A DNA stretch of 60,324 nt, the filler included, from Sluysia triapertura (lineage: Eukaryota), in the NCBI GenBank assembly GCA_046118255.1. It is 5 parts of 5 records of this genome, joined end to end, with 100 filler letters (N's around TTAATTAATTAA, not from the genome) between each part and the next. Parts side by side here need not be neighbours in the genome. Positions count along the whole stretch, not along the records: positions 49,285 to 60,324 come from JBJNIA010189753.1; 4 more parts are not named here. One strand, given 5' to 3'. This document shows positions 5,577 to 59,262 of this stretch, piece after piece. The notes under the pieces are model-generated. The model saw only the letters and a program-made list of their open reading frames with translations, was not told the DNA's origin and did not search any database. Position numbers and translations under genes: made by a program. Every line of letters begins with the position of its first letter. Within the stretch, counting starts at the first letter, position 1.

Positions 5577-6067
5577 TTTGAATCGATTCGATTGAATTTA
5601 TTTTTATAACTTCTGTCCAAGTAATACACAATTCTTGATCTCGACTAAAATCTTTCAAATTAATTCTAATTCTTACTTTGAATGACTTACTTTTTATACT
5701 ACTTATTTCCTTTAGATGTTTATTAATTTTTTCAAAATAATATAAATAAATATTGGTAATTTTAAAAATAATATAAATAATTGACTTCCTTTAAAATATT
5801 GGCTTCCTTTAACTAATTTAATTATTAATCATAAAATAAATAATAAACTTCCTTTCCTTTAATCATAATTATAAATAATTTTATAGTTTTAGATTTTTAT
5901 AATTAAACTTTTATTATTTACAATAAATACATTTTATAATTAAACTAAAAAATTTTTTAGAAAACTTTTATTATTTACAGAAATATTTTTTAATTTTTAT
6001 TATTTTACACATTATTTACATATACAAATTATTTACATAAAAATATTTTTAAACTTTTATTTAAAAT

Positions 6068-8150
6068 CGTAACGAGTCAGATTCAAACCCAATCTATTCA
6101 ATAATAAGTTAATAATAAGAAACTTTATTAAGTTTAGCAGATACACTCGTACTGCATAGATATAAGTTGACCTCCATAATTTTTCTATAACAAAATGCCT
6201 TTACAAAAGCCTTTACTTTCGTAAGTCTCGAACCACAGGCGGACTTAACACCACATAACAACTTTGTAAAAGTCTTCGCAACCATTTACAACAATAAAAT
6301 TGGTGTCAGGAATTAAAACGAACCCTGCTGTCTCCTGTATGTTTCACGAAACCACGTCCCACTATTTGTACATCCAAACCCATAAATTCTTTATATTATA
6401 AACATAAAATTATCACAGAAAACTATACAAATAATCATAACCATATTTATAACAATAATTCCAACGATAACAATGTGTATATTTTCTGGATAAATTTATA
6501 AATATAAATAAAATTCTATATAATAATATAAATGTATATAAAAATAATATCGAAAGTATTTTTAAAAATTATTTAAAAACACAAAAACCTTTTAAATATA
6601 ATATCACCACAACATCAATACTTCCATCTACTAGTTCTACTGATCATAGCAATAAATCTCAACAAATTACAACGAATACATCCACAAAACCCCAAGATAA
6701 CCATACATCTCTGAACACAAACATGGGCCAGAACAAAAAAACCCAGCAAACATGTCACCTTTCAACTACAAAAGAACATATTTTACAAGATACCTTCACG
6801 AAACACATCAGACACAAAAGACAAATTGAATAAAACAAAGTTAGATAAAATACAGACAAATATCACGAACTTATGTAATGCCATCAATTCATCATAAATA
6901 CGATCATTAATAAAAACAACGACTCCAATACATATAATAATATCACCCAATCACTAAACAGAACATTGAAATCTTCCCTATTCGAAACAAATAATAAACA
7001 TTTGACATAAGATATTTCATACAATAACATCAAACCTCCACTAAAACAAGGAAACTACAAGAACAGCAATACACAGGCACAAAACACCAATTCTAAACAG
7101 CTAAACGACACAGCAATACAACTTCTACCATTCAACACAAGCAATAAAAAATTTCACAAAACCGTATCACCAACTTACGCAGTAACGTTAAATCTTCACA
7201 AAATTTTTCAACAAATAAAAAGAACAACATATACACATATAATAACAATTCCGAACAATTGAAACACAATACAATACAATTTTCACTATGCAAAACAAAT
7301 GAATCACTTTATAAATACCAAACTCAAAACCACCTCAACAATTCATCTTATAACGATAAACTGTCACAAAACTCTACAAAAACGACAAATATTTACATAT
7401 ACAATAACGTCACCAATCAGTCAACAAACCATATAACAGTAACTTCATCTCTCAAAATAAACAATAAATCTTTTCACGACGATAAAATTCAAAAATCTTT
7501 TAAACCAAACACTATACCTTTTATCAGGACAACCACTACTCAAAACTAATAAAATTTTATGTTACGATATAAATGTAAGTCAAGACAACATTAATGTAAA
7601 AAAGGGCCTATCAAATTATAACCTACCCATCAGTTAAAATACAATTTAACTGATCTACAAAAAAGTATAAAATAAACGGTCAAAAATCCTTCGCACAAGT
7701 CTGTAAAAAAGGTCCCCAAGTTAAACGTGCCATTATGGCTAATTCAAAACAAAGGATTATCAAATCCTACAGTATAACCAATAAATATAATAATAAAGAT
7801 CATAAACAACGAAACATTTCAAACCAACAGACCAATAAAAGTAATTTTAAAGAAGTCAATACACTCAAGGACGTACCGAAACAATTACCTAAAAAAACAA
7901 ATGTCAAAATCAATATATAAGACCAAACGATCAATAAGTCCAACTTCAAACAAGTCAACATTTCTAAGAATATAATCTTAAACAACCAGAAAAGAACCCA
8001 AATAACAAAATCAGCCAACTAAATCAAAAACAAATATACCCAAAACAAACAACCGAAAACGTATTCCACTAATCAAATCCAAATTAAAAAATCTAATATC
8101 AATAATTCTTAAAATAATTTCTATAATAATATCAACATCATTGTTTAAAA
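6068..8150 (+). mobile_element. Putative degenerate LTR element: LTR-like segment, PBS and an A/C-rich decayed internal region
   Basis: TGGTGTCAG at 6301 resembles a tRNA-Leu PBS. It follows an about 220-bp segment (CGTAAC...TTTACA) and precedes about 1.8 kb of strongly A/C-skewed, G-poor sequence with broken frames. Confidence 0.4.
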
Positions 8151-8379: not shown

Positions 8380-9583
8380 TCAGTAGAAGAAATGGAACAT
8401 TGTAGCTATGTTCTTGAACTTTGGAAGATGGAATTTCAGCTTTTGTGTTCCATAACACGCTACTGATGACTCATTTGATGCAGTTAGATATAGATTGAGT
8501 TGATGTAATTTCTTACACAGCGTATTAGGAATTACTGATACCGCTGCACCTGTGTCAATAAGAAACTCAAGTCGCCGGTATTGAAAATTTTGGAATGTAA
8601 GCAGCATAGTGAACATGGAAAGGGATGCCATTTCGATCGGTTTAGCCGCTGTAACCGATGGCACCGTTAGTTTTTTGTTGGTGCTTTGAAAGTCGCAACC
8701 TTCTATGCACTTGCGAGCCATATTCTTATAATATGCATGGTAGGGAACTTACAACCTAACAAACAGCACTTTGACTTATTTTGGAACCGCTGGTGATAAT
8801 AGCAGATCCCGTTAAATGATCTCTCACGACTTGGAGATCTTGATGATCTGGATGATGATGATGATGATATGTTGTTTCTCGCCTTGTTGGTATGTGAGCT
8901 GTTGATGTTGGTAGCCAGTGTTGCGATGACTTTTCAAAGGGCTTCAGTCTGTGTGATGATAGAATCTAGACGTTTGCTCAAGATTTCATATGAATGGCTA
9001 CTTGACTCTATCACCGAGATTGATTTGTTGCTATTCTCGAATGTGAACTTCGGATGTGCCACAATTATCCTATCTGCGAGGTCTGCCAACTTTTCTCTAT
9101 TCTATCTGAGGTGGTGAGGCATTAAAAAATCGTTTTAGCGCGTATTGATCTTCCTCAGTTACGCATCTTAAATGTTCCAAATCATTTTTAGTTTTCTTCA
9201 GAAATTCTGACGGCTTCAGTGATCCAAGTGACTGGTTTTTGAAATATTCATGGAACAACTGATTCACATTACGACTGAAATGTTTCATGAGGACCTCTTT
9301 CAATTCATCGAAAGGGTTTATTGCCCTCAAACATGTTGAAATTTTCGGGCTTATAACCACCACTAGATCTATAGGTAAAGACGATATTGCCCTGGTGAAT
9401 TTCAAAGTTGAGTTCGTCACATTTTGTGAGTTAAGGTCCGCTTCTAGTAGCAGCTGCCATATGTTTGGGGTCCCATTGCTATCTACTAAGAAATTCACTG
9501 GTGTAACCGGTGTCGCAGCATTTAATTCGGTTGTAGGTGGTGTTGTACTTGTATTTGTACTTACACTTGGTGGATCGTCGTAG
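8380..9583 (-). mobile_element. Ty3/gypsy retrotransposon gag-protease, disrupted and 3'-truncated
   Basis: Gag motifs PNIWQLLLEADL..VTNSTLKFTRAISSLP, LGSLKPSEFL and LADLADRI. Cys/His knuckles CYYHQRFQNKSKCCLLGC and YHAYYKNMARKCIEGC. Aspartic protease FLIDTGAAVSVIP and LTASNESSVACYG. Confidence 0.9.
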
Positions 9584-10337
9584 TTGTGCTGTATCTTTAT
9601 TATAGCTCCATTGGTGATCCCGCGGTGTTTGAAACTGCGATTGGTCCTAAGTGGTTTAGTATTGTAGAGGAACCAGGCTTGCCTGTGATGCGTTATGCGA
9701 TGTAAAATACCTGTGTTCCTATCCAGGGTCCACGTTATTAGTGATATTTAAGCCGCAAGATACACATTTTATATTTATTTGAACCAAATTATAGTTTTAA
9801 TGATAATTCATCGGGTTTTTTATTTTTTATTATTAAAATTATTGAAATTTTTAACTAGAATTAAATAAATTAAAGATACATTAAACTTTGTAATAACAAA
9901 TGAAATAGTTAATGAAATATTCGTAAAATCTATTTTTTATAAAGCTATATTTGTAAATATTTTTTCAGCTACAAATCATCACAAAGTAATAAATGAAAAT
10001 TTTAAAAAGGTATGAATGGCTAATGAAGATATTTTAATTTGGATGATTTTGAATTTTGTAAAATTTGATCTTTTTTGATTTAATCAATAGACTTACGATA
10101 ATAATTGCTATAAATATATTATGATTATAAACCATTATGATTGTGCCTGAATTTTTGGTACCACTGAATATGAATGATTAATCTAAAAATACAAATTATA
10201 TAAAATAATGTAAAAATAAATATTAATTAAATGTTTGGCTAAAAATAAAAATCAATAAATTTGTAAGTATAAATAAAACAAGAAATTCTTACTAAATCCA
10301 TATTGAATCAGAATTAACGTCGAGTTATTAGTGTAAT

Positions 10338-14536: not shown

Positions 14537-14636
14537 NNNNNNNNNNNNNNNNNNNNNNNNNNNNNNNNNNNNNNNNNNNNTTAATTAATTAANNNNNNNN
14601 NNNNNNNNNNNNNNNNNNNNNNNNNNNNNNNNNNNN
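14537..14636. other. Artificial contig spacer
   Basis: 44 N + TTAATTAATTAA + 44 N; the 12-mer has stops in all six frames. Confidence 0.97.
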
Positions 14637-26348: not shown

Positions 26349-26420
26349 CACATTATGAGCGGGTATTCTTAAGTGACAGTACATAAAACGGGTACTAATA
26401 CCCGCCCCGCTCATAATGTG
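26349..26420. mobile_element. 72-bp piggyBac-type MITE
   Basis: Perfect 15-bp TIRs CACATTATGAGCGGG / CCCGCTCATAATGTG, preceded by TTAA (26345-26348). The contig ends at the right TIR. Confidence 0.75.
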
Positions 26421-26900: not shown

Positions 26901-27311
26901 TCACAAACCGAATATAATGCCATAAGTAGCCAATTGTATATTTCGAATCCATACATTTTTCGTGGTTCCTTTCAGTATTTTCTCGAAGAATATACCAGCA
27001 AAACCCGACAGAAAACTTGACACCACTACAGCACTAAAACCTAACATAGGGTACTGTATAGGTGTTTTATTTGGTAATTTAGCTAAATTTAGCAGTTTAT
27101 GCTTAGGTGCATGATGAAAAGGCTCATGCTGATTTTCTACTGATAATTGTGAAAGTTGTACTTTATTATGCTGATTCACATGTTCCAATTGAACAATAAC
27201 GATGCCGATAAATAGCATAAATAAACTGCACCACTGCACAGAACTTTGTAACTTTCCGAGCATTATACGGAAAAATAATGCTGTTGTAAGTAATTTTAAT
27301 TGATAGCAAAC
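26901..27311 (-). CDS. Internal exon of an SLC35A-family nucleotide-sugar (UDP-Gal/UDP-GlcNAc) transporter
   Basis: After an AG acceptor: VCYQLKLLTTALF..MLGK..QWCSLFMLFIGIVIVQ...GFSAVVVSSFLSGFAGIFFEKILKG...VWIRNIQL. Other exons not found in this contig. Confidence 0.9.
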   Translation of the reverse strand, partial: VCYQLKLLTTALFFRIMLGKLQSSVQWCSLFMLFIGIVIVQLEHVNQHNKVQLSQLSVENQHEPFHHAPKHKLLNLAKLPNKTPIQYPMLGFSAVVVSSFLSGFAGIFFEKILKGTTKNVWIRNIQLATYGIIFGL

Positions 27312-41800: not shown

Positions 41801-42199
41801 ATGTATAATCCAAGTCAAAATTATTATATCGATCGAAACTACAACTATGTATTTATGCCTGTTGTGCCACAAAGTATACCTTCAAATACACTCTTGGTAC
41901 AACCTATTCATCAGCCATTATCGTGGATAAATAATCCCCAAATTATCAATGTCTCAGCAGAAACTTCAGAAAGTACGAAAAAACATCGATCGAGGGAAAA
42001 TTTTCGAAAAGAGCAAGTAGATAAATTAATGGAATTATATAATCAAAAGAAACATCCATCCCCAGAAGAACGTGAAAATATAGCGAATGAAATCAATGTA
42101 ACATATGAAAGAGTCTCTCAGTGGTTTAAAAATAAGCGTGCCAGAGATAAAAAGAATACTAATGATAGCGGTTCCAGTGCTAACACTAACGTAAATTAA
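41801..42199 (+). CDS. Single-exon homeobox transcription factor, divergent PRD-like K50 homeodomain, 132 aa
   Basis: HRSRENFRKEQVDKLMELYNQKKHPSPEERENIANEINVTYERVSQWFKNKRARDKK has R5, F8, L16, W48, F49, K50, N51 and R53. Intact ATG to TAA; AATAAA near 42325. Confidence 0.93.
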   Translation: MYNPSQNYYIDRNYNYVFMPVVPQSIPSNTLLVQPIHQPLSWINNPQIINVSAETSESTKKHRSRENFRKEQVDKLMELYNQKKHPSPEERENIANEINVTYERVSQWFKNKRARDKKNTNDSGSSANTNVN

Positions 42200-49320: not shown

Positions 49321-49392
49321 CAGTGGTGTCAAAGTGGCGGCCCGCGGAGGCAAATCATGCAGCCCGTAAAGCAAAAAGGTTTGACACCACTG
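49321..49392. mobile_element. 72-bp hAT (Charlie/Buster-type) MITE
   Basis: Perfect 13-bp TIRs CAGTGGTGTCAAA / TTTGACACCACTG with a GCGGCCCGCGG subterminal motif. The 8-bp flanks match at only 4 of 8 positions. Confidence 0.85.
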
Positions 49393-50391
49393 ATCTAAAA
49401 TATATTTTGGCTATCTAATTTTTAATGTCTATATTTGTTTTGCACTAATTTTTTATTTTTAACTCTGCATTTAATTGGCCCATTTTCAAATTATCAAACT
49501 TTTACACCAATTACATTTCTCAACATCTTTCTGATTATTTGACAACGTTCGCAGTAACTATTGGTTACGAAATTACCTAATTTTACAAAAATTATGTAAC
49601 CAATAGATATCATTCAACTTAGTTAAAATTATTACTATTACTATTATCATTATCATTATTATTATTAGTAGTATTAGTATTAGTATTATTATTATTATAA
49701 TTATTACCATTGTGTCTTCATTAAATTATTTTTCGCATAAATTACATATAAATTAAAGTCTAGAGGTGAAGTGTAGAGTATAGAATGTGTAAAATTTATG
49801 TTAATAAAATACTTTTGTTGCCTATAAGTTTTAGTTTAATTTAATCGTTGGCTTTATGACTAATAATTCTTTTAAATTAGGTTACTCAAACGTATTTCCT
49901 TATAAAACATTACGTTTGATTTATAATTATTTTTCAACTCTTTTTACTCCTACTAATCCTCTTTAAATTAGTTAAAGTTTATTCTTTATAGTACTCCTAT
50001 TGGCTTAGTTCAAAAATATTATTTAAGTCTTGATCAAATAATTTCTAGTTCACTTATTCTCTTATTTACTTAGTATTAAATTCTTTTTGATAATTCTAAT
50101 ATGGAAGTTTAGTTCAATACTCGTCTCTGTTCTTAAAGGTGGAAGTGCCAGTTAAAGTTTTAAAATTATTGATTTTAAGTACTTAAAATCTCACTTATCG
50201 ATTGTAGTGGCCCGGCCCACACCTATCTACATATCATTTACCATTTCTATTATTATTAATACTGTTGTTATTATTATCATCATCATTATTGCTATTGTTA
50301 TTATTATCATTATTACTTTTGTTATTATTATTATCATTGTTACTAATATTCCTAAATATAAAATAAATTAAAATTTGAACAACGTTGATTA

Positions 50392-50624
50392 AACTGGTTG
50401 CTGCCATCACCAGTGCTGACAGTCTGTGTCATATTTACATTAGGCTGTCAGCCTTGATGATGGTCGGCCATCAGTTGTTAATTTTCATCAAAATAAATAA
50501 CTTACCAAATATCACCCAATCAGAGCACAGCTCATTTGAAAATACTAAATACTAATACCAACACTCTGATTGGGTAGATAAAAATAATTCTAATAAAATT
50601 AACGTGTCTAGAAAATATAGACAC
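50392..50624 (+). promoter_or_regulatory. Structured leader A (three inverted repeats) upstream of the 494-aa ORF
   Basis: Arms at 50404-50425/50442-50463, 50514-50525/50564-50575 (perfect 12 bp, inverted CCAAT boxes) and 50604-50610/50618-50624. Confidence 0.75.
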
Positions 50625-50737
50625 AAAACAAATTGCAGACAATAAAAATACCATCTATAACAATAAATTCTTGTTTTTATTACTGAAAATTACTGTCAAC
50701 ATATTTTTCAACGAAATTTTGTCTTTTTGCTTATTAC

Positions 50738-52222
50738 ATGATGAAAATTTGTATGGAACAAAGGGATAAAGTATTCTCTTCGATATTAAGAGTTATCAAC
50801 AGTTTTACTATCATTTTAAAAAGCAACTATCTTGAAGTGTACAAATTGGATTTATCAAAACAGTTATCTGAAGAATTAAACGATAGATGGTTATTCTTTA
50901 TCGAGATTATTAATGATGATAAAACAGATGATCTATATCCAAATTTAATTGAACCAAATCTCAAGATTAATGTAAACATTTGGAATTTTTTTGAACCAAA
51001 ATGTAAATTGTTAAAATCACTGATGTCATGCAAGTGGGCCCACTTTCCAAAGTCTATATGGTGTAGTGATTACAATTATGATGAATACGTTATTATTCGT
51101 TTTCGTGTTAGACATGACATATATTGTCATGGAGGAAATGAGTTTATTCTCGGGTTATTTAGTTTAGATATAAATTTGATAGTAAAAATAATTTCAATCT
51201 ATCTGCTATTTAAAGTAATGCAACAGCACCATGAATTCGGTGGTTTGGAGAGTAGATCAGATTTAGTTGAAGTTCGAATATTGCGAGACAAGCTGCTTAA
51301 GAATGATAATTTAATATTTGATATAATGAGAAATACACCTACAGACCTTTACAAGTTAATCGAAATAAAATATGACATTCACCACATCATATTAATTAAT
51401 GACTATGTGAAACTGTATCTATTACAAAGCCGCTTCAGTATAACTTTTGCAACTATAGACGAAATGGCATGTAATTGTGAGCTAATTTGGCTAAGTACTG
51501 CTCGACTTATTTTGCTGTTACAATCTATCATTATGCTGGGAGTTAATCATGGTTTCTTGGTGTTGATCAAAGAAATAAATACTTCAGCGAACAATTTTTA
51601 CGAAATTTTATATGACAATGATGTTAGTTTTGATTTTATTCCCTCTTTTAATTATCTTTTAGTCAACTCGAACAATCTTAGGATCTCGAAGTGTCGGCGA
51701 ACCAAGGATGATGGTAAACATGACTCAGGTGACCTGTCTATAGATATTGACAAAAATTTTAAAAATAAAATATATGTATATAATTGTAATCTCATAATAT
51801 TAATTCTTAATAATAAATTTTTAGTGTTATTTATTCAATTATCTACGAAAATTTGTTTCATAGACTCGAATTTCATATATACAATAAAATTTCACACAAT
51901 ACTAAGATTTAAGACTTATTGTCACGTTAGTATCTCTGAGAATTACAATGAACCTTTAAAGATACAAATAAATATTACAATCAATAAGATTAATAAAATA
52001 ATAAATACACCCTTCTGTCAATTATTAAATTATAGTCCAATTGATCATATAAAAGACTCCTCATGCACATTGATAGACTTCCAAGTATTGCTTAATCTCG
52101 TCTTTAGTAATGGAATTTATAAGCCGCCCTCAAATTCAATTTATCTTTTTAAAATAAACATTAAAATTAAAAATGTTGTTGTAAAACTAAATTCTACAAA
52201 TAAATACACCATAAGTTTATAA
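50738..52222 (+). CDS. Intronless 494-aa protein of unknown function
   Basis: By far the longest ORF in the window; 494 stop-free codons are very unlikely by chance in DNA this AT-rich. No motif recognised. Confidence 0.8.
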   Translation: MMKICMEQRDKVFSSILRVINSFTIILKSNYLEVYKLDLSKQLSEELNDRWLFFIEIINDDKTDDLYPNLIEPNLKINVNIWNFFEPKCKLLKSLMSCKWAHFPKSIWCSDYNYDEYVIIRFRVRHDIYCHGGNEFILGLFSLDINLIVKIISIYLLFKVMQQHHEFGGLESRSDLVEVRILRDKLLKNDNLIFDIMRNTPTDLYKLIEIKYDIHHIILINDYVKLYLLQSRFSITFATIDEMACNCELIWLSTARLILLLQSIIMLGVNHGFLVLIKEINTSANNFYEILYDNDVSFDFIPSFNYLLVNSNNLRISKCRRTKDDGKHDSGDLSIDIDKNFKNKIYVYNCNLIILILNNKFLVLFIQLSTKICFIDSNFIYTIKFHTILRFKTYCHVSISENYNEPLKIQINITINKINKIINTPFCQLLNYSPIDHIKDSSCTLIDFQVLLNLVFSNGIYKPPSNSIYLFKINIKIKNVVVKLNSTNKYTISL

Positions 52223-52837
52223 AAACATAACACCTAATTCAATCGCATTCCATAATATCGAATTACATTAACCGATTAATCATAAACAATATTCCACATT
52301 TATAAGATTTCAACAACATATACTCCTCAAACAATTCGTCTAATAGTTCCAAATTTTCACCTCACACTATATTTTGATAATTAATACCGAATAATCTATA
52401 ACATTCACTCAATAACTATTCTTTCAAACCAAATCACAGCCACCAAAAATAATATTAAAGTTACAAATACATTAACACCATTCAACAATAGTAACAAATA
52501 CCCGAAACATAGAAAACAGTTACGTTACAACCTTGAATCAGCTATACTTATTCAAACCCACTTCAGCTACACATAACAATTATCAACACTCTACAATAAT
52601 ATTGTAAATATGCTAAGATTTATTTAGTAATTGTCTTTTAAATCAAATAAACTATAACCTTCTAACAAGCCTTTTAAATCCATTACAGTTAATGCATAAA
52701 TCGTACTTTCAATTATAAAGCATAAATAAACCTCAAGAATTTACTCCAATATCTTTCATTTCACTTACAATATAAATCATTTCTTTTTGCTTAAAAAATT
52801 AATTTAAAACAGCTTTAAAGAATTCATTTCCTTGTGA

Positions 52838-52891
52838 TGAAGCAACGGCGATAACTGAAGCATAATATACCACGTTACCGTCGTTCCTTCA
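52838..52891. other. GC-richer hairpin downstream of the 494-aa ORF
   Basis: TGAAGCAACGGCGATAAC (52838-52855) pairs with GTTACCGTCGTTCCTTCA (52874-52891): 15 of 18 Watson-Crick plus one G-T. Confidence 0.6.
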
Positions 52892-53109
52892 CATAATACC
52901 AATCTCTTCTATTTACCTTTTTCTATGTTATATGTTAGAAGGACTAAAGAATTCGATAAAAAGTTCGTGTAAATTTTAAAAGAGGGATTTATGCGAATTG
53001 TTTTCGTATGATAATAATAATAATAACAATATTATTGTTGTTATTATTATTGTTGCTATCAATCGTTAAACTAATTTTGCAAACCTAAATTAAATTATAC
53101 TTGTTGTCG

Positions 53110-53352
53110 CCATCATCAATGTTGACATACTGTTCACTATTCTATTGATATGTCAATATTGATCATGGTAGGTCGTCGAAAAATCAGTTGTTGTACAATT
53201 TTTGGATACATCCAATCACGACTGTAGTATGCAAATAATAATTTTTGAAGTCGTGATTGGATAACCAATCGTAAGCTGCTCAATACAATTTTGTTAACAA
53301 AATTTTACACAAAATTAATAAAACCAGAAATTCTGGCACAATAAAAGTTACC
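53110..53352 (+). promoter_or_regulatory. Structured leader B, paralogous to leader A
   Basis: Arms at 53110-53129/53149-53168 and 53210-53223/53249-53262 (perfect 14 bp), ATGCAAAT in the loop, and CCAGAAATTCTGG at 53324-53336. Confidence 0.75.
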
Positions 53353-53454
53353 AAAAAATTTCTTATCATAGATAACCGAATAAAGTCAAAAATTTTTTTA
53401 GTAGTCTCGACAAAAATCACATCAATTTTTCTCAATCAATAACAAATATTGGTT

Positions 53455-55090
53455 ATGTAATCGATAAAGAATGCAATATTAATCGTATCAAATGACTCCG
53501 ACGAAAATTTCCAAGGTAAAAGGCGAGAAACCGAACAAGTTTCAAATGTTTACACCATATCATCCTTTTGTAATAATAAGAAAACTAACATTCAAATAAC
53601 TACTCTTTTCGATGTTTTCGGATATAATCTATATAATTTTCGCAGTACTTTACAGAATCAGAATAGCTATAATGAAAATTCACGTAGCGTAGACGAAGAT
53701 AGTTTTTATTGTGTGACACGTAGAATGAATGTTCATAAAGAAGATAAAACTGGAAATTATAGTGAAACACCGGTAATGAATAATAAGGAAAGCAATAGAT
53801 TTTATCGATTTAGTTAATAGTCGAAATCTAACAAAATTAACTAGTCCGATTGCCACATCTATGATATTATTTTCAAAACATTCTTTACTTCTTATCAAAC
53901 TACAAAAAAAATTAACGATTGAACTAGTTCAACAAAAAGCTGATCAAATGTCCCAAATCATGAACGAACAATTTTTCAGTGAAAGTATACTCAAAGTCGA
54001 ATTAGTTAACCATCAAGACACAAATTTAGACAGAAGTAAACAGATCATATACAATCGACATGACGTGTTAAGAAACTATAAAATTAAACTATTTCATCAC
54101 TGTCTGTCAAGGCGACCAAAGGCTAGCACCATGATACAAAGAAATGTAATCAATTTATCTCCAGATAGAGCGATGCCTTATTTTAGATTAGTATTAAAAA
54201 TTAACGAAGCAGATAATGTCATGATCTAACTCTATAAGCTCACTATAAACAAAATTTGGTATACAATCAATCATAATTTAGAAACGTGTTTCAAATCATC
54301 AAAAAGGATAGACATGCTAATCTGTCTTATCATATTACAAATTAATGGGATCAACTTGATACTACAACGTCAACAATCTACGATGTCATCAACAGTCAAT
54401 CAAGAGTACAACTTAATCATGAAGATAATAAATCTATGCGAATTTAAGGATGAGACTTTTTGCAATAAGTTGTCGGTTGTAAGTCCTTATTACATATTTT
54501 TATCGATTTATATTTTAGATAATGAATTTAACGAATGGATTACTGGAAGTCAACAAGAAGTAGTAATGCAAAAAAAATCAAGGAAGAGAAAACTTATCTA
54601 TAAAATTTCAAAATATTTTTTCTTGTAATAAATTTGTTGTGTTAAAAAATTTTATATTTATTTTAAATAACTTAAACTTATTGTCTCGAAAAGAAAGAAT
54701 TTTATGTTAATACTTAGTATGTCCGAAAAGAACGAGTTCGAAACATAAGTCGTTAACATTTAATGATTTCAAGGAGGAAACTAAATTTAGACATAAATTC
54801 ATGCATAACATTCATAATGATGTTTGACCCTGTGATCCTTCACAAACTTTTATCAAATTATATTATTATCATTATTAAATTAACTGTAACACAACTTGAG
54901 ATTCTGAAACCAAGCATTAAGTCTTTATTTAATTTTAATTTATTAAAAACGTCATTAATTAAGAATTCAGAAATCTCAACATAAAACAACACCCACTCCA
55001 AAATACCGGCCAACAAACTTACATTTTTAATAAGTAACAAATCAAGTAACGAACTTTATGAACAAACAATACAAAATTGGAAAACGAATG
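53455..55090 (+). pseudogene. Decayed long ORF downstream of leader B
   Basis: ATG-TAA at 53455, then 118 open codons (53461-53814), then same-strand fragments 53861-54229, 54314-54628 and 54763-54984. Confidence 0.55.
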
Positions 55091-55400
55091 AGATTCTTTT
55101 TAATTAGTTTTACCATTTTCGTTTACAGTTACTACAGTTATTAATGTCTTAATGTGCCTTACGAAACTAAACATAGAAAATTATTGTGAAATAAGAATAA
55201 CGCAAAATTCCATTTATAAAATTCTCAGGTGAAATAATACTAAAAATACCTGGAAAGTTAAATACATAAGTACATAATAAATACATACAATTTTTAGATA
55301 GGATCAACATTTCGAATGGCCTGTAATTGGTTCCTATTTATAGGTTATCCATTTCAATATTGGTCCAATAAGTAGATTAAACAAATGATTCCTTTTATAA

Positions 55401-55885
55401 TTAACACGCTGAATAATTTGTAAAAACAGCGATTGACGTTTTTCGATTCATTTCATTATCTTCTTCAATACAAACCATCAAATTAAAAATAATTTTAGAG
55501 TAGCAAACGAAACGGCAATGATAATTAACATACATCAGATACTTCGAAGAATTTTTCAAAAAATACGTCTTTATTTCTTCTTTATACAAATTCCAAAATT
55601 TTAGTTGTACATTCAGGACCTTCAGATATTTCCCCATCATAAAGCAATTCAAGATTTTCAATCTGTTTTCACAGATTTTTTCTTTTAAGATGACTTTCGA
55701 TAAGTTGGAACTCATAATTCAAAGCGTTTTCCATTCGTTCTCTGTGATATGTTCATTTAAATTTTCCAAAATGCTAACAGTACGCGGAATTAAATTTTCG
55801 AATACTATCAAACGTCCAAATTCTACATCTTCTCTCATTTCGGTAATCGCTTGCATAATTTGACTTCCGCATACACTATTTGTTC
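55401..55885 (-). pseudogene. Frameshifted unknown ORF
   Basis: MQAITEMREDVEFGRLIVFENLIPRTVSILENLNEH... continuing in shifted frames. No family recognised. Confidence 0.25.
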
Positions 55886-56709
55886 ATATTTGTAAGTTAA
55901 ATAAAGATCTCTTGTGATATTTTAACTGAAAAGTATCATTTAAGATTAACAGTGAAAATAAATCAGAAAATAAAATTACACGAAATAACGCGAAAATCAC
56001 CAGGCTAAGAATGACAATGTCCGAAAACAGTAGAATTAATTATTATAATTAGTATAATTAGTTATTATAACTTTAATATAGAGTAAATTTTATTATGAAT
56101 TTTTATAATTTGTAATTTTATGATTTGTAATGAATGAATGGTATAATGATATATGAATGATAATAAAATTTACTGTTTGTAATTTGGATGTAGTATATTA
56201 TAAGGCTTGTAGTTTATATTGAGTGGAATAAGATGGCGATGTTAAGTATAACTTTAGGTATGAATTTATGTGTGAGAGGAGTAACAAAACTATCGTGTGT
56301 GGTTGGGACACTGTAGCAATGACACTAAACCCAAGTTATTTGATAAATTTGATTTAATTTAAAAAGGTATGGTTCAAATAAAATATGTAAACTTACTGAT
56401 TGGTTATTTATTACTTATTTATAGTTTATCTTTTATCTGGTAATTTAATTTATTTTTACTAAAAATATCTACCTTTGAAAATTATTTATTCTTTATTACG
56501 AAAATTAAATCGATCAAATTAAACTATTAATTATTAAATAAATTATTTAATTATTATCAAATTAAATCATTAGAACGATGTCATCCGAAAATCAAATGAT
56601 ATAATCATATAGAAAATGATTAAACAAGAAATTAATATAACAATTATTAATGAAATTAACAATATATTTTATTTAAATTTAAACTTTTACATGTTGTATT
56701 CATAATGAT

Positions 56710-56876: not shown

Positions 56877-57699
56877 AGTATAATAAAATGGTTTCATCGT
56901 TTAAAAAATTTTGTATGTTTACATATTATCGACAACACTGTTTTATATAGTGTATTCTACCAATATTATATTATGGCCAATTAATTTTTCAATTACATTC
57001 TATAATAACTATTCTGCAGTTAAATTTAATTATTTTCTACAGTTAAATAATTTAAGTCTTAAAATATTCTCGTTTAACTTTGTATTAACTTTACATTCAA
57101 ACAATCAAAGTTGTTATTTTATAAACATTAAATTCTTCAACCTGAAAAACCTGATCAAACTTGCGCAGTCATTCACCATGATAAAACGTGAAGATAATCT
57201 AATATTCAGTTCGTATCTGAACTATATATAACTTAGTAACGTCTCGATAAATTCGAATAAGATTCGACTATCACAATTCGAAATACAATTTGCATATAAT
57301 TTTTATTTATTTATGATTTAACAATAAATAGTTCGTCGAGTTCATAAAAGTGACATTTATCAATTAACAGTAGTTGAAAAATACACAATTGTTAATTTTA
57401 TCTTGATAATTCGTAAAAGCAAACATAATTGTAATATAAAATATTATTTCAAGTTCAAACATCATTAAAATTCAATAGCATCGTTAAATGATAATTTAAC
57501 ATGAATAAAAAGTGTTACATTCACTTTCTAAAATATAGAGTGCATGATAATTTATACTATTTATCATCTATTTAAATCCGGATTGATTACCGAAGTAAAT
57601 CTTTACAACAATAAAATAGCAGGCGAGCATAAAGGGACAGTCTATATCGATTAATTCCACTTGTGAGTTTGAATTTAGATATCAAATGTAGCTTCATTA

Positions 57700-57910
57700 C
57701 TTCCTTTATTTTGGAAATTTGATAAATCCTATGACAGTAAGCAGACATTCTCTTCTTCAGTACAACCAGCCAAATATGCTTCCATTTTTGAAATTTTGAA
57801 TCTTATATCATTTGATATTCTAATGTCATCAATAGTTGTAGTTACAATGCGATCTTTATCAACAATATAAACAATGAGTTTACTACTTTCAAAATCATTT
57901 ATCGATTTTA
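57700..57910 (-). pseudogene. Possible Tudor-domain remnant
   Basis: KLIVYIVDKDRIVTTTIDDIRISNDIRFKISKMEAYLAGC loosely follows the extended-Tudor VxFVDYG...LR...F...A pattern, then stops. Confidence 0.25.
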
Positions 57911-58769
57911 AAAAAATTATATCATTATAAAAAATGATTTATTTTTTGATAATTCTTATTAATTTTTTATTAATTAAAATAATGAAAATAATTAGTAATT
58001 AGTAATTGTGGAAAATCATTAATTAGTACTGATAAAATTGTTAAAATAAATATAATTTTATTGTAGGTGTTAGCGCTAATAAAAGTGATGATAATGATAG
58101 TTGAAGAATGATAAAATGAAAGAATAACAAAGATATAAAAAGAATTTAGAAAAATGTAAATATCGGAATGCTAAAACCAAATTTCTAAAAAATAAAAGCA
58201 TGTCAGAATTAACGTCTAACAGAAATAATAATAATCAATTAAGAAGTTTACTACCTAGATACTTATTTCTTCATTTGTTTGACAAATTTTCAGTTAATTA
58301 AAAGTCAAATAGGAAGGGATAATTTTACTGTTCAAAAGATATTACAAAGCTGAAATATCTAAGATGTTTGTTTTGGTTATTTAAGTTTTTCTGTATTTAA
58401 TACCGACTTAAAATCTGCGTAATTTCACATTGACATTCTTTGGACATTTTAAAATATCCGTAAAATTATACTAAAATTATAATTTAGATTAATTTAAAGA
58501 ATAAATTTAAATTATAAACTTTGTGCAACAATCAAATAATTATCTCTGATCACTTATTTATTAACCTGATTAATTGTTATGCAGTATTCCATAAAGAAAT
58601 TATTTAATTTTGTTAAATTCCCAAACGATTAAAATAAACGCGTAAACGAGAATAAATTTTATAGCTTTATTTTCATAGAAGCTATCTATTTTGTAAAGTT
58701 TTTTCACGTCGGTTTAAGTACGACAATAAAATCTTATTTTTCGTCCTAGTTTAATAAAGGACTGAAATA

Positions 58770-59262
58770 CCGGGTGGTCGCTAGAAAAGCGTAACAGCTG
58801 AGATCATGAATAAAATGCATACTTACTCATTTCTATTTTCATTTGTTTTAGGTTCTATTTGATATCCATATCATGGAAGGAAACCGGAAACAGCTTTCAG
58901 ACTTTCAAAGGCAAGAGATTATTCGTTTCAAAAGTGAAAATCCGACTTGGGTTCTGACAAAATGTCTAACTGTTCACCAACTTTTTTTTCAACGATTACA
59001 AGGCATCAGTTTAATAATGTTGCAACTTTGAAATAAGAAGGTCCTAAAGCAGCTGGAACAGGCCTAAAGAAACTACAGTGAAAGATTTGGTTGTTTCACC
59101 TTGCGACACGGTGCAATGAATAGACGTCATTTCAGTCAACGAGAAATCGCTTGACATCTCAATATATCGAAAAAATCACTGTTTGAAATTCTCAAAGAAA
59201 GTGAACCGAAATGTAATCCCCTTAGTGAGTGACATCAGGAAATGCGAAAAAACTAGCCGAAG
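58770..59262 (+). mobile_element. Tc1/mariner-superfamily element: left TIR and disrupted transposase N-terminus
   Basis: TA|CCGGGTGG terminus. MEGNRKQLSDFQRQEIIRFKSENPTW (ATG 58873), RPKETT, FSQREIA*HLNISKKSLFEILKE and PLSE*HQEMR. Confidence 0.75.

Follow-up and report, generated by a model that had tools for sequence, protein, structure and literature searches.

Two multi-hairpin leaders in front of probable paralogous orphan genes of Sluysia triapertura

Two leader regions and the coding regions behind them

The stretch of Sluysia triapertura DNA analysed here (the window; 60,324 nucleotides (nt), assembly GCA_046118255.1) is made up of five contigs, with N-linkers between them at 14537, 26421, 37831 and 49185, and has a GC content of about 25%. 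Through in silico analysis of the last contig (49285 onward, JBJNIA010189753.1), two leader regions, A and B, have been identified, each about 340-350 nt long, 2.7 kb apart and followed on the same strand by a coding-like frame. The homology of the leaders is beyond chance: their local alignment scores 108, against a best of 76 (A) and 83 (B) among 746 other windows, and the islands shared between them are 67-79% identical.

Both leaders possess a common ordered chain of five motif islands. Its motifs include: (i) GCCATCA, at 50403 in A and 53109 in B; (ii) ATCAGTTGTT, at 50470 and 53183, a motif with just three matches on both strands of the 60 kb; (iii) the CCAATCA/TGATTGG pairs, at 50516/50567 and 53212/53254; (iv) ACAATAAAA, at 50639 and 53338, with TACCA after it. 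Every motif named in the first-pass annotation, which had described one layout for the two leaders, is found in the same order in both copies. The spacing of stem 1, stem 2 and ATG is conserved as one unit; the ATG, placed 160-195 nt after stem 2 in the first-pass annotation, lies at 162 nt in A (50738) and at 192 nt in B (53455). The (TAT)n-like tract before each leader is likewise present, as period-3 arrays (50248-50350 and 53030-53051) that stop 52 and 57 nt before stem 1, though such arrays are common (16 within the window). The TCAGTT inside ATCAGTTGTT is taken by us to be initiator-like. The Sm-site-like AATTTTTGG occurs in B only (53197-53205), just before stem 2.

Further copies of the leader were sought within the window and in prokaryotic and plasmid collections. 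No third copy within the window was revealed by a covariance model built on stem 1; its 39 matches up to E 10 include A, B and their reverse strands, and the best further match (13163, E 0.017) was rejected as an unrelated AT-rich hairpin amid debris. The proposal of an element family is unsupported, as the model yields no copies other than A and B in the window and the weak colinear similarity of the two proteins suggests ancient paralogues. Leader A has no match in the plasmid collection. The nine prokaryotic matches of a degenerate stem-1 pattern were taken as chance, none of them having the TGAT.ATGG end of the 3' arm; four lie in a stop-free antisense frame and eight are without a CCAAT/ATTGG pair. 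At 6880-6953, GCCATCA precedes 15 nt that agree exactly with the 5' arm region in stem 2 of A (E 0.06), without a partner arm and probably by chance. No description of such a leader element was found by word searches of the open-access literature, most subscription papers and Repbase being outside their scope.

The open reading frame (ORF) behind leader A is coding now or was so until recently. In 2000 shuffles, no stop-free version of its first 358 or of its last 136 codons arose, and frames in shuffled windows reached at most 140 amino acids; its GC content at third codon positions, 0.28, is that of host exons (0.26-0.28). At about codon 358 the composition turns A/C-rich (51812-52900), the frame staying open for 136 more codons. 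Region B was formerly coding and is now broken. Its ATG at 53455 is directly followed by TAA, and the frame survives in three pieces (53461-53817, 53780-54229 and 54230-54628), the breaks being the stop after the ATG, a frame change near 53780-53817 and an internal stop at 54227-54229. Between 53780 and 54625 there is one stop, where the minimum among shuffles is 8. The long ORFs announced after each leader thus amount to an intact frame of 494 amino acids in A and a relic in three pieces in B. Genetic codes 4, 6 and 9 neither repair B nor open the skewed stretch 51830-52900.

An AATAAA lies at, overlapping or near the stop of each ORF, a weak sign given 31 AATAAA in 7.7 kb. A motif of AATAAA and a GT-rich part common to A (51790-51830) and B (54605-54645) is of borderline significance, scoring 42 against 36 and 44 for the best others of 1968 windows. 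It was not used as evidence, since it stands at the stop of B yet within ORF A and is out of line with the protein register. A minus-strand retroposon tail was also rejected, the ORFs and the wobble pairs of stem 1 being on the plus strand. Further broken intronless orphan ORFs, dissimilar to A and B, are located on the minus strand of the same contig (55400-55890 and 57560-57950).

No homologue of ORF A was found by a word-index protein search (8000 candidates scored) or by HMMER against 1.84 billion representatives, nor of the 282-codon part of B, read with X, by the word-index search (351 candidates). An exact look-up of eight ORFs in the protein collection, the ESM Atlas (ORF A whole and 1-340), a comparison of ORF A with PDB sequences and a phage tblastn search gave no match. 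For the leader contig, Pfam (17 and 21 sequences), PHROGs and NCBIfam (7 each) returned sub-cutoff noise only; the first piece of B (53461-53817) was searched against these profile libraries only. AlphaFold models of the A and B proteins have pLDDT values of 29.5 and 33.2, and their folds are unusable. Nothing in the window reaches the gathering score of an Rfam family, and the tRNA scan was empty.

The local alignment of the A and B proteins, with X at the breaks of B, is long and nearly gap-free, with 19-22% identity. Identities number 44/203 and 46/245, values as high occurring in 24 and 7 of 1500 shuffles, respectively, and the diagonal is near-constant, mostly at an offset of 11-13 amino acids from the ATGs. 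Across 36 settings, scores as high were obtained from 0-6 of 400 shuffles in 12 local alignments with BLOSUM45 or PAM250, 10-37 of 400 in 6 local ones with BLOSUM62 and 10-254 of 400 in 18 global ones; with deep matrices p is about 0.01. Neither tblastn nor blastn detects similarity between the two coding regions. The alignment weakly indicates paralogy, and A and B are probably, though not provenly, ancient paralogues.

Pairing within the stems

Stem 1 can be aligned between the copies in a 24-bp register that is ungapped and free of indels, and 22 of the 24 pairs are kept in each copy despite 13 substitutions. Fourteen pairs are invariant, three have changed on both sides in a compensatory manner, three show one-sided changes between Watson-Crick and G.U pairing, and four are broken in one copy. 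In slid registers 19-56% of cells pair, versus 92% in the true one. When the 5 + 8 substitutions were placed independently on the arms in a neutral simulation, at least 22 pairs were kept in 0.05-0.06% of 20000 runs, which gives P 0.0005-0.0006 under independent arm mutation. The 5' arm is conserved at 19 of 24 positions with GCCATCA intact, the 3' arm at 16 of 24.

Stem 2 is perfect in both copies though its inner arms have diverged in sequence and in length, the differences being mirrored between arms. The window holds 150 perfect inverted repeats with arms of at least 9 nt, and just four with arms of at least 12 nt and at least six G/C; two of these four are the stems 2 of A and B. The first-pass statement that both arms change together is borne out by the three two-sided and three one-sided consistent changes of stem 1 and by the mirrored rewriting of stem 2. 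The same changes, together with the P of about 0.0005, support active maintenance of the pairing, which it had proposed to result from selection or arm conversion. The description of the stems needs correction in two respects. Stem 1 is present but longer than noted, with its 24-bp register, about 35 bp in A, and G.U pairs. The small stem 3 is strong in A, but B offers two weak candidates, at about 53287-53317 (-2.8 kcal/mol) and at 53324-53336 (11 of 200 shuffles as good), whose homology is insecure.

Stems 1 and 2 of both copies fold better than all 200 shuffles (z -3.5 to -6.6), and none of 3967 windows holds a stronger hairpin than stem 1 of A. A preference of stem 1 for the plus strand is weakly indicated by its four G.U pairs per copy on that strand, by independent wobble-type positions, six of which favour plus versus two minus (p 0.14), and by minimum free energies as RNA, plus versus minus, of -45.7/-36.3 in A and -23.2/-20.6 in B. 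Folding energies as DNA show no strand preference for the stems. The 3' arm of stem 1 carries ATG-GT in both copies (50460 in A, 53165 in B). The upstream ORFs starting there comprise 31 codons in A and 20 in B; both open with Met-Val-Gly, with changes at third positions only.

The coordinates of the leader and gene features are given in Table 1.

Table 1. Features of the two leader and coding units
Feature	Position	Strand	Details
Degenerate (TAT)n array before leader A	50248-50350	+	TRF, 34 units, 73% match
Stem 1 of A	50392-50476	+	Core 50403-50426 with 50441-50464, extends to about 35 bp; pre-miRNA-like size
Conserved ATCAGTTGTT of A	50470-50479	+	Motif comparison; contains TCAGTT
Stem 2 of A	50510-50580	+	Perfect 12-bp core 50514-50525/50564-50575, inverted CCAAT boxes, 38-nt loop
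Stem 3 of A	50604-50624	+	7 bp, 7-nt loop, z -4.2
Conserved ACAATAAAA..TACCA of A	50639-50653	+	Motif comparison, leader alignment
ORF A, intact single-exon orphan, 494 amino acids	50738-52222	+	Stop-free in 0/2000 shuffles, first and last part alike
Self-complementary (AAT)n then (TAT)n array before leader B	53011-53051	.	Repeat and hairpin scans
Stem 1 of B	53109-53169	+	53109-53132 with 53146-53169; register as in A
Conserved ATCAGTTGTT of B (53183-53192) and AATTTTTGG (53197-53205)	53183-53205	+	Motif comparison
Stem 2 of B	53210-53262	+	Perfect 14 bp, inverted CCAAT boxes, 25-nt loop
Two weak small stems and ACAATAAAA..TACCA of B	53287-53353	+	Folding scans, motif comparison
Coding region B, broken, about 390 codons	53455-54628	+	Stop counts versus shuffles

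Neighbouring features and the host

Short inverted-repeat elements with arms of 13, 15 and 11 bp are present at 49321-49392, 26349-26420 and 49558-49606, respectively. The last has ATTGG/CCAAT arms of a polarity opposite to stem 2 and is followed by another (TAT)n array. A perfect or near-perfect palindrome of 20 nt lies upstream of tract A (50171-50190). On the minus strand, a hairpin of microRNA (miRNA) size but of a sequence unrelated to stem 1 (52830-52895) stands behind the (AAT)n/(TAT)n array in head-to-head orientation to leader B; a T/G-rich stretch without an open frame comes after it on that strand.

Other contigs of the window carry a nucleotide-sugar transporter exon (26904-27311), whose best named match is Slc35a-4 of Schmidtea mediterranea (49% identity). 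It groups with that protein (support 99/94) in a tree of 22 rows, built from the exon and 21 of the 120 matches listed. Sequence relationship of this one exon, on another contig than the leaders, makes the host probably a flatworm. A single-exon ORF of 132 amino acids with a Pfam homeodomain, without exact match in the protein collection, is located at 41801-42199 (+), and retrotransposon-like gag (DUF7041) and aspartyl protease fragments at 8383-9747 (-). In the last contig, a degraded fragment at 58852-59200 resembles, by eye and with no Pfam match, the start of a Tc1-like transposase. The stretch 5900-8130 has a strong strand skew (T/G-rich on minus) and matches neither Pfam, read under code 9, nor Rfam; it has near 6330-6350 what we take to be a motif like small-subunit ribosomal RNA, and is probably a degraded, very divergent mitochondrial insertion.

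Possible roles of the leader

We tentatively prefer, at somewhat less than even confidence, to read A and B as an old tandem pair of single-exon, lineage-restricted genes with a structured 5' leader that would be conserved at the RNA level and would gate the ORF post-transcriptionally, B being a pseudogene. The unit, of host origin on this account, would consist of the (TAT)n tract, a leader of about 340 nt, the ORF and an AATAAA at or near its stop. Transcription by RNA polymerase II would start just 5' of stem 1, and the leader would be kept because the plus-strand transcript folds. Expression may then be gated after transcription by stem 1, which is long and imperfect (arms of 22 nt each, a loop of 16-20 nt), together with the perfect stem 2, in one of two ways: (i) Drosha might crop stem 1 in the manner of a pre-miRNA, so that a small RNA is set free and the mRNA loses its cap, or (ii) the stems and the conserved upstream ATG in stem 1 might throttle scanning to the main ATG. 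Pre-miRNA-like hairpins in mRNA leaders are reportedly exemplified by the Microprocessor-cleaved hairpins of DGCR8 mRNA. As part of this tentative reading, the three breaks of B suggest only slight decay and hence a recent pseudogene; its intact stems therefore need not be selected today, and the compensated differences between A and B would have arisen earlier, under selection.

Several observations weigh against this reading. The chief objection is the TCAGTT located 3' of stem 1 in both copies, which as a start site would place stem 1 outside the mRNA. A and B share the position of neither a basal UG nor a CNNC, the lower stem of B is weak, and the seed is shared for one cut position only. 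Stem 2, without wobble pairs, folds on the minus strand at least as well as on the plus strand, like DNA-level inverted repeats, and the 6-to-2 asymmetry of wobble positions is not significant (p 0.14). The comparison rests on two copies of the leader, which permit no real covariation test; the shuffle control for stem-1 covariation (74/500) cannot discriminate with two sequences. The protein similarity is weak with BLOSUM62, mostly absent in global mode and without significance in BLASTP (best E 0.44); among 564 control frames from the genome, 7-36 match A as well (0-6 for B), and the combination of score and small offset, reached by 0-4 of 600 shuffles, was chosen after the alignment had been seen. 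Finally, an integrated element would likewise account for intronless orphan ORFs in one cluster with further broken ones.

Such an element is the foremost rival, though we hold it to be unlikely. A and B would be integrated cassettes or segments of an unclassified flatworm DNA virus or rolling-circle-like element with one ORF per segment, and the leader would be a common region with origin or packaging hairpins and a promoter, as in multipartite single-stranded DNA (ssDNA) viruses. In its favour, the units hold one ORF each and are alike in size, their non-coding region has been conserved far better than the protein, the orphan intronless ORFs cluster with the broken frames at 55400-55890 and 57560-57950, AATAAA overlaps or adjoins the stop, and stem 2 is perfect, its indels mirrored and its folding as DNA neutral to strand. 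Against it, A and B resemble paralogues more than different segments, their codon GC is host-like, and no Rep, helicase, capsid, reverse transcriptase (RT) or transposase match was obtained in profile and protein searches, in line with the first-pass remark that no transposase, RT or Rep motif is visible, although a Rep could lie outside the window. Neither leader contains the CRESS nonamer in its exact form, NANTATTAC, and the one-mismatch versions are not at a shared loop position. No target-site duplication of at least 9 nt and no terminal inverted repeat of at least 10 nt was found at four tested pairs of candidate boundaries, (TAT)n matches aside. Scans of the leaders detected no hammerhead core, telomere repeat or Rfam ribozyme, the consensus motifs for the nonamer, hammerhead and telomere scans being in part those we presume to be standard. 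Helitrons and Helentrons are marked by subterminal inverted repeats or by a 3' hairpin with CTRR behind it; no CTRR stands at a shared position next to a stem in the leaders, a comparison confined to the surroundings of the stems and to features we take as typical. The earlier suggestion of an ssDNA origin or terminus of a mobile or viral element gains no positive support, with no nonamer in a loop, no hammerhead core, no target-site duplication or terminal inverted repeat at the boundaries tested and no Rep, RT or transposase in the searches made. The structured RNA leader offered beside it is the better supported of the two, but mildly, by the wobble positions and by the RNA energies that favour the plus strand for stem 1.

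A related possibility, more doubtful still, is an undescribed segmented or modular flatworm DNA element in which the double-hairpin common region of each one-gene unit would act at once as a transcript leader and as a signal for replication or packaging, replication being provided in trans by a protein other than Rep, RT or transposase. Known systems resemble A and B in part. The CR-SL of circular plant DNAs of about 1 kb is likewise a covarying stem-loop region, better conserved than the ORFs, in units with one ORF each; it differs in its 9-11-bp stem with TAGTATTAC in the loop, whereas the A and B stems have 14-35 bp and no nonamer, and the units are chromosomal, without Rep and in an animal host. 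Terminons presumably have a multi-ORF layout. As Penelope-like elements with hammerhead motifs (PMC6431247), they share with A and B repeated structured motifs among the ORFs of a larger element; A and B are without hammerhead core, Rfam ribozyme, RT, GIY-YIG or telomeric repeat. The virus-like elements PEVE and PIVE are known from planarians (PMC3198968) and represent segmented virus-like DNA in a flatworm host. They encode parvovirus NS1-like proteins; compared at the protein level, A and B show no such match.

Of similarly low probability is a stand-alone, lineage-specific miRNA gene at stem 1, duplicated with its neighbour, while stem 2 and the later motifs would be an unrelated ORF promoter. 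The MirGeneDB medians are 22-nt arms, a 16-nt loop and 19 bp (PMC11701709), and stem 1, with two arms of about 22 nt, a loop of 16-20 nt (the minimum for a pre-miRNA being 8 nt) and 19-22 pairs including G.U and single mismatches, fits them. Its more conserved 5' arm and the third miRNA-sized hairpin at 52830-52895 are also in agreement. The top sub-threshold Rfam matches of stem 1 are all miRNA models, yet the best reaches 27.3 bits versus a gathering score of 70. Processing motifs are not shared: UGUG at the apical junction and the lower stem, of about 11 bp in pre-miRNAs, are found in A only, and UG and CNNC are unshared. In contrast to animal pre-miRNAs, which it equals in arm, loop and pairing sizes, stem 1 belongs to no known family, has a weak lower stem in B and is tied to two more hairpins and an ORF by a spacing conserved as one unit.

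Slightly less probable again is an action at the DNA level, as a promoter for RNA polymerase II in which an initiator accompanies inverted sites of YY1-like (CCATCA) and NF-Y (CCAAT) type, labels which we assume for these motifs; the arms would have been homogenised by template switching or arm-to-arm conversion and might extrude as cruciforms. Each stem is indeed built on an inverted transcription-factor-like core, TCAGTT stands in both copies, and stem 2 is fully Watson-Crick. Binding sites, however, need no pairing of their flanks, and conversion predicts perfect arms, yet stem 1 has its G.U pairs and isolated mismatches.

Very improbable is a spliced-leader (SL) RNA gene or derivative in the 5' part, with a leader ending in AUG, a GU donor on the first hairpin, an Sm site and a downstream hairpin. 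The ATG-GT that both copies have on the 3' arm of stem 1, and AATTTTTGG before stem 2 in B, resemble the layout of flatworm SL RNAs, described in PMC12582326 as having a leader of 31-36 nt, a whole RNA of 78-103 nt and an Sm-like UVUUUGG motif. In this comparison by description, the stretch from stem start to AUG would give a leader of about 60 nt, A has no Sm site, UVUUUGG occurs in neither copy on the plus strand, A and B differ although SL genes evolve in concert, and both are followed by an ORF. Moreover, ATGG follows automatically from pairing with CCAT, so that AUG-GU is not independent of the stem sequence. The 5' terminal hairpins of non-trans-spliced Caenorhabditis elegans mRNAs (PMC9984361) are similar as 5' hairpins on mRNA of a trans-splicing animal; they mimic a short SL hairpin, whereas stem 1 is far longer and has a sequence common to the paralogues. 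Equally improbable, and largely refuted by the ordered chain of five islands, an alignment score above all 746 control windows, the ungapped stem-1 register and the lack of target-site duplications, is chance or the independent insertion of short inverted-repeat, miniature transposable element-like units before the ORFs, in spite of the other 50-70-nt elements of this kind (49321-49392, 26349-26420, 49558-49606) and the many (TAT)n arrays.

The multi-hairpin leader is real, constrained and undescribed, and stands before two probable paralogues, one intact and one broken; a mobile element family is not shown. Leader islands that remain 67-79% identical with compensated pairing, versus about 20% identity of the proteins, indicate strong constraint and a real cis-acting element that is not in Rfam. 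With two copies, one of them broken, its present value is that of a well-defined lead. Were the leader a common region, it would represent a new class of modular element in animals; if the preferred RNA leader is true, it would provide a testable case of hairpin-gated expression, by miRNA cropping or upstream-ATG control, of orphan flatworm genes.

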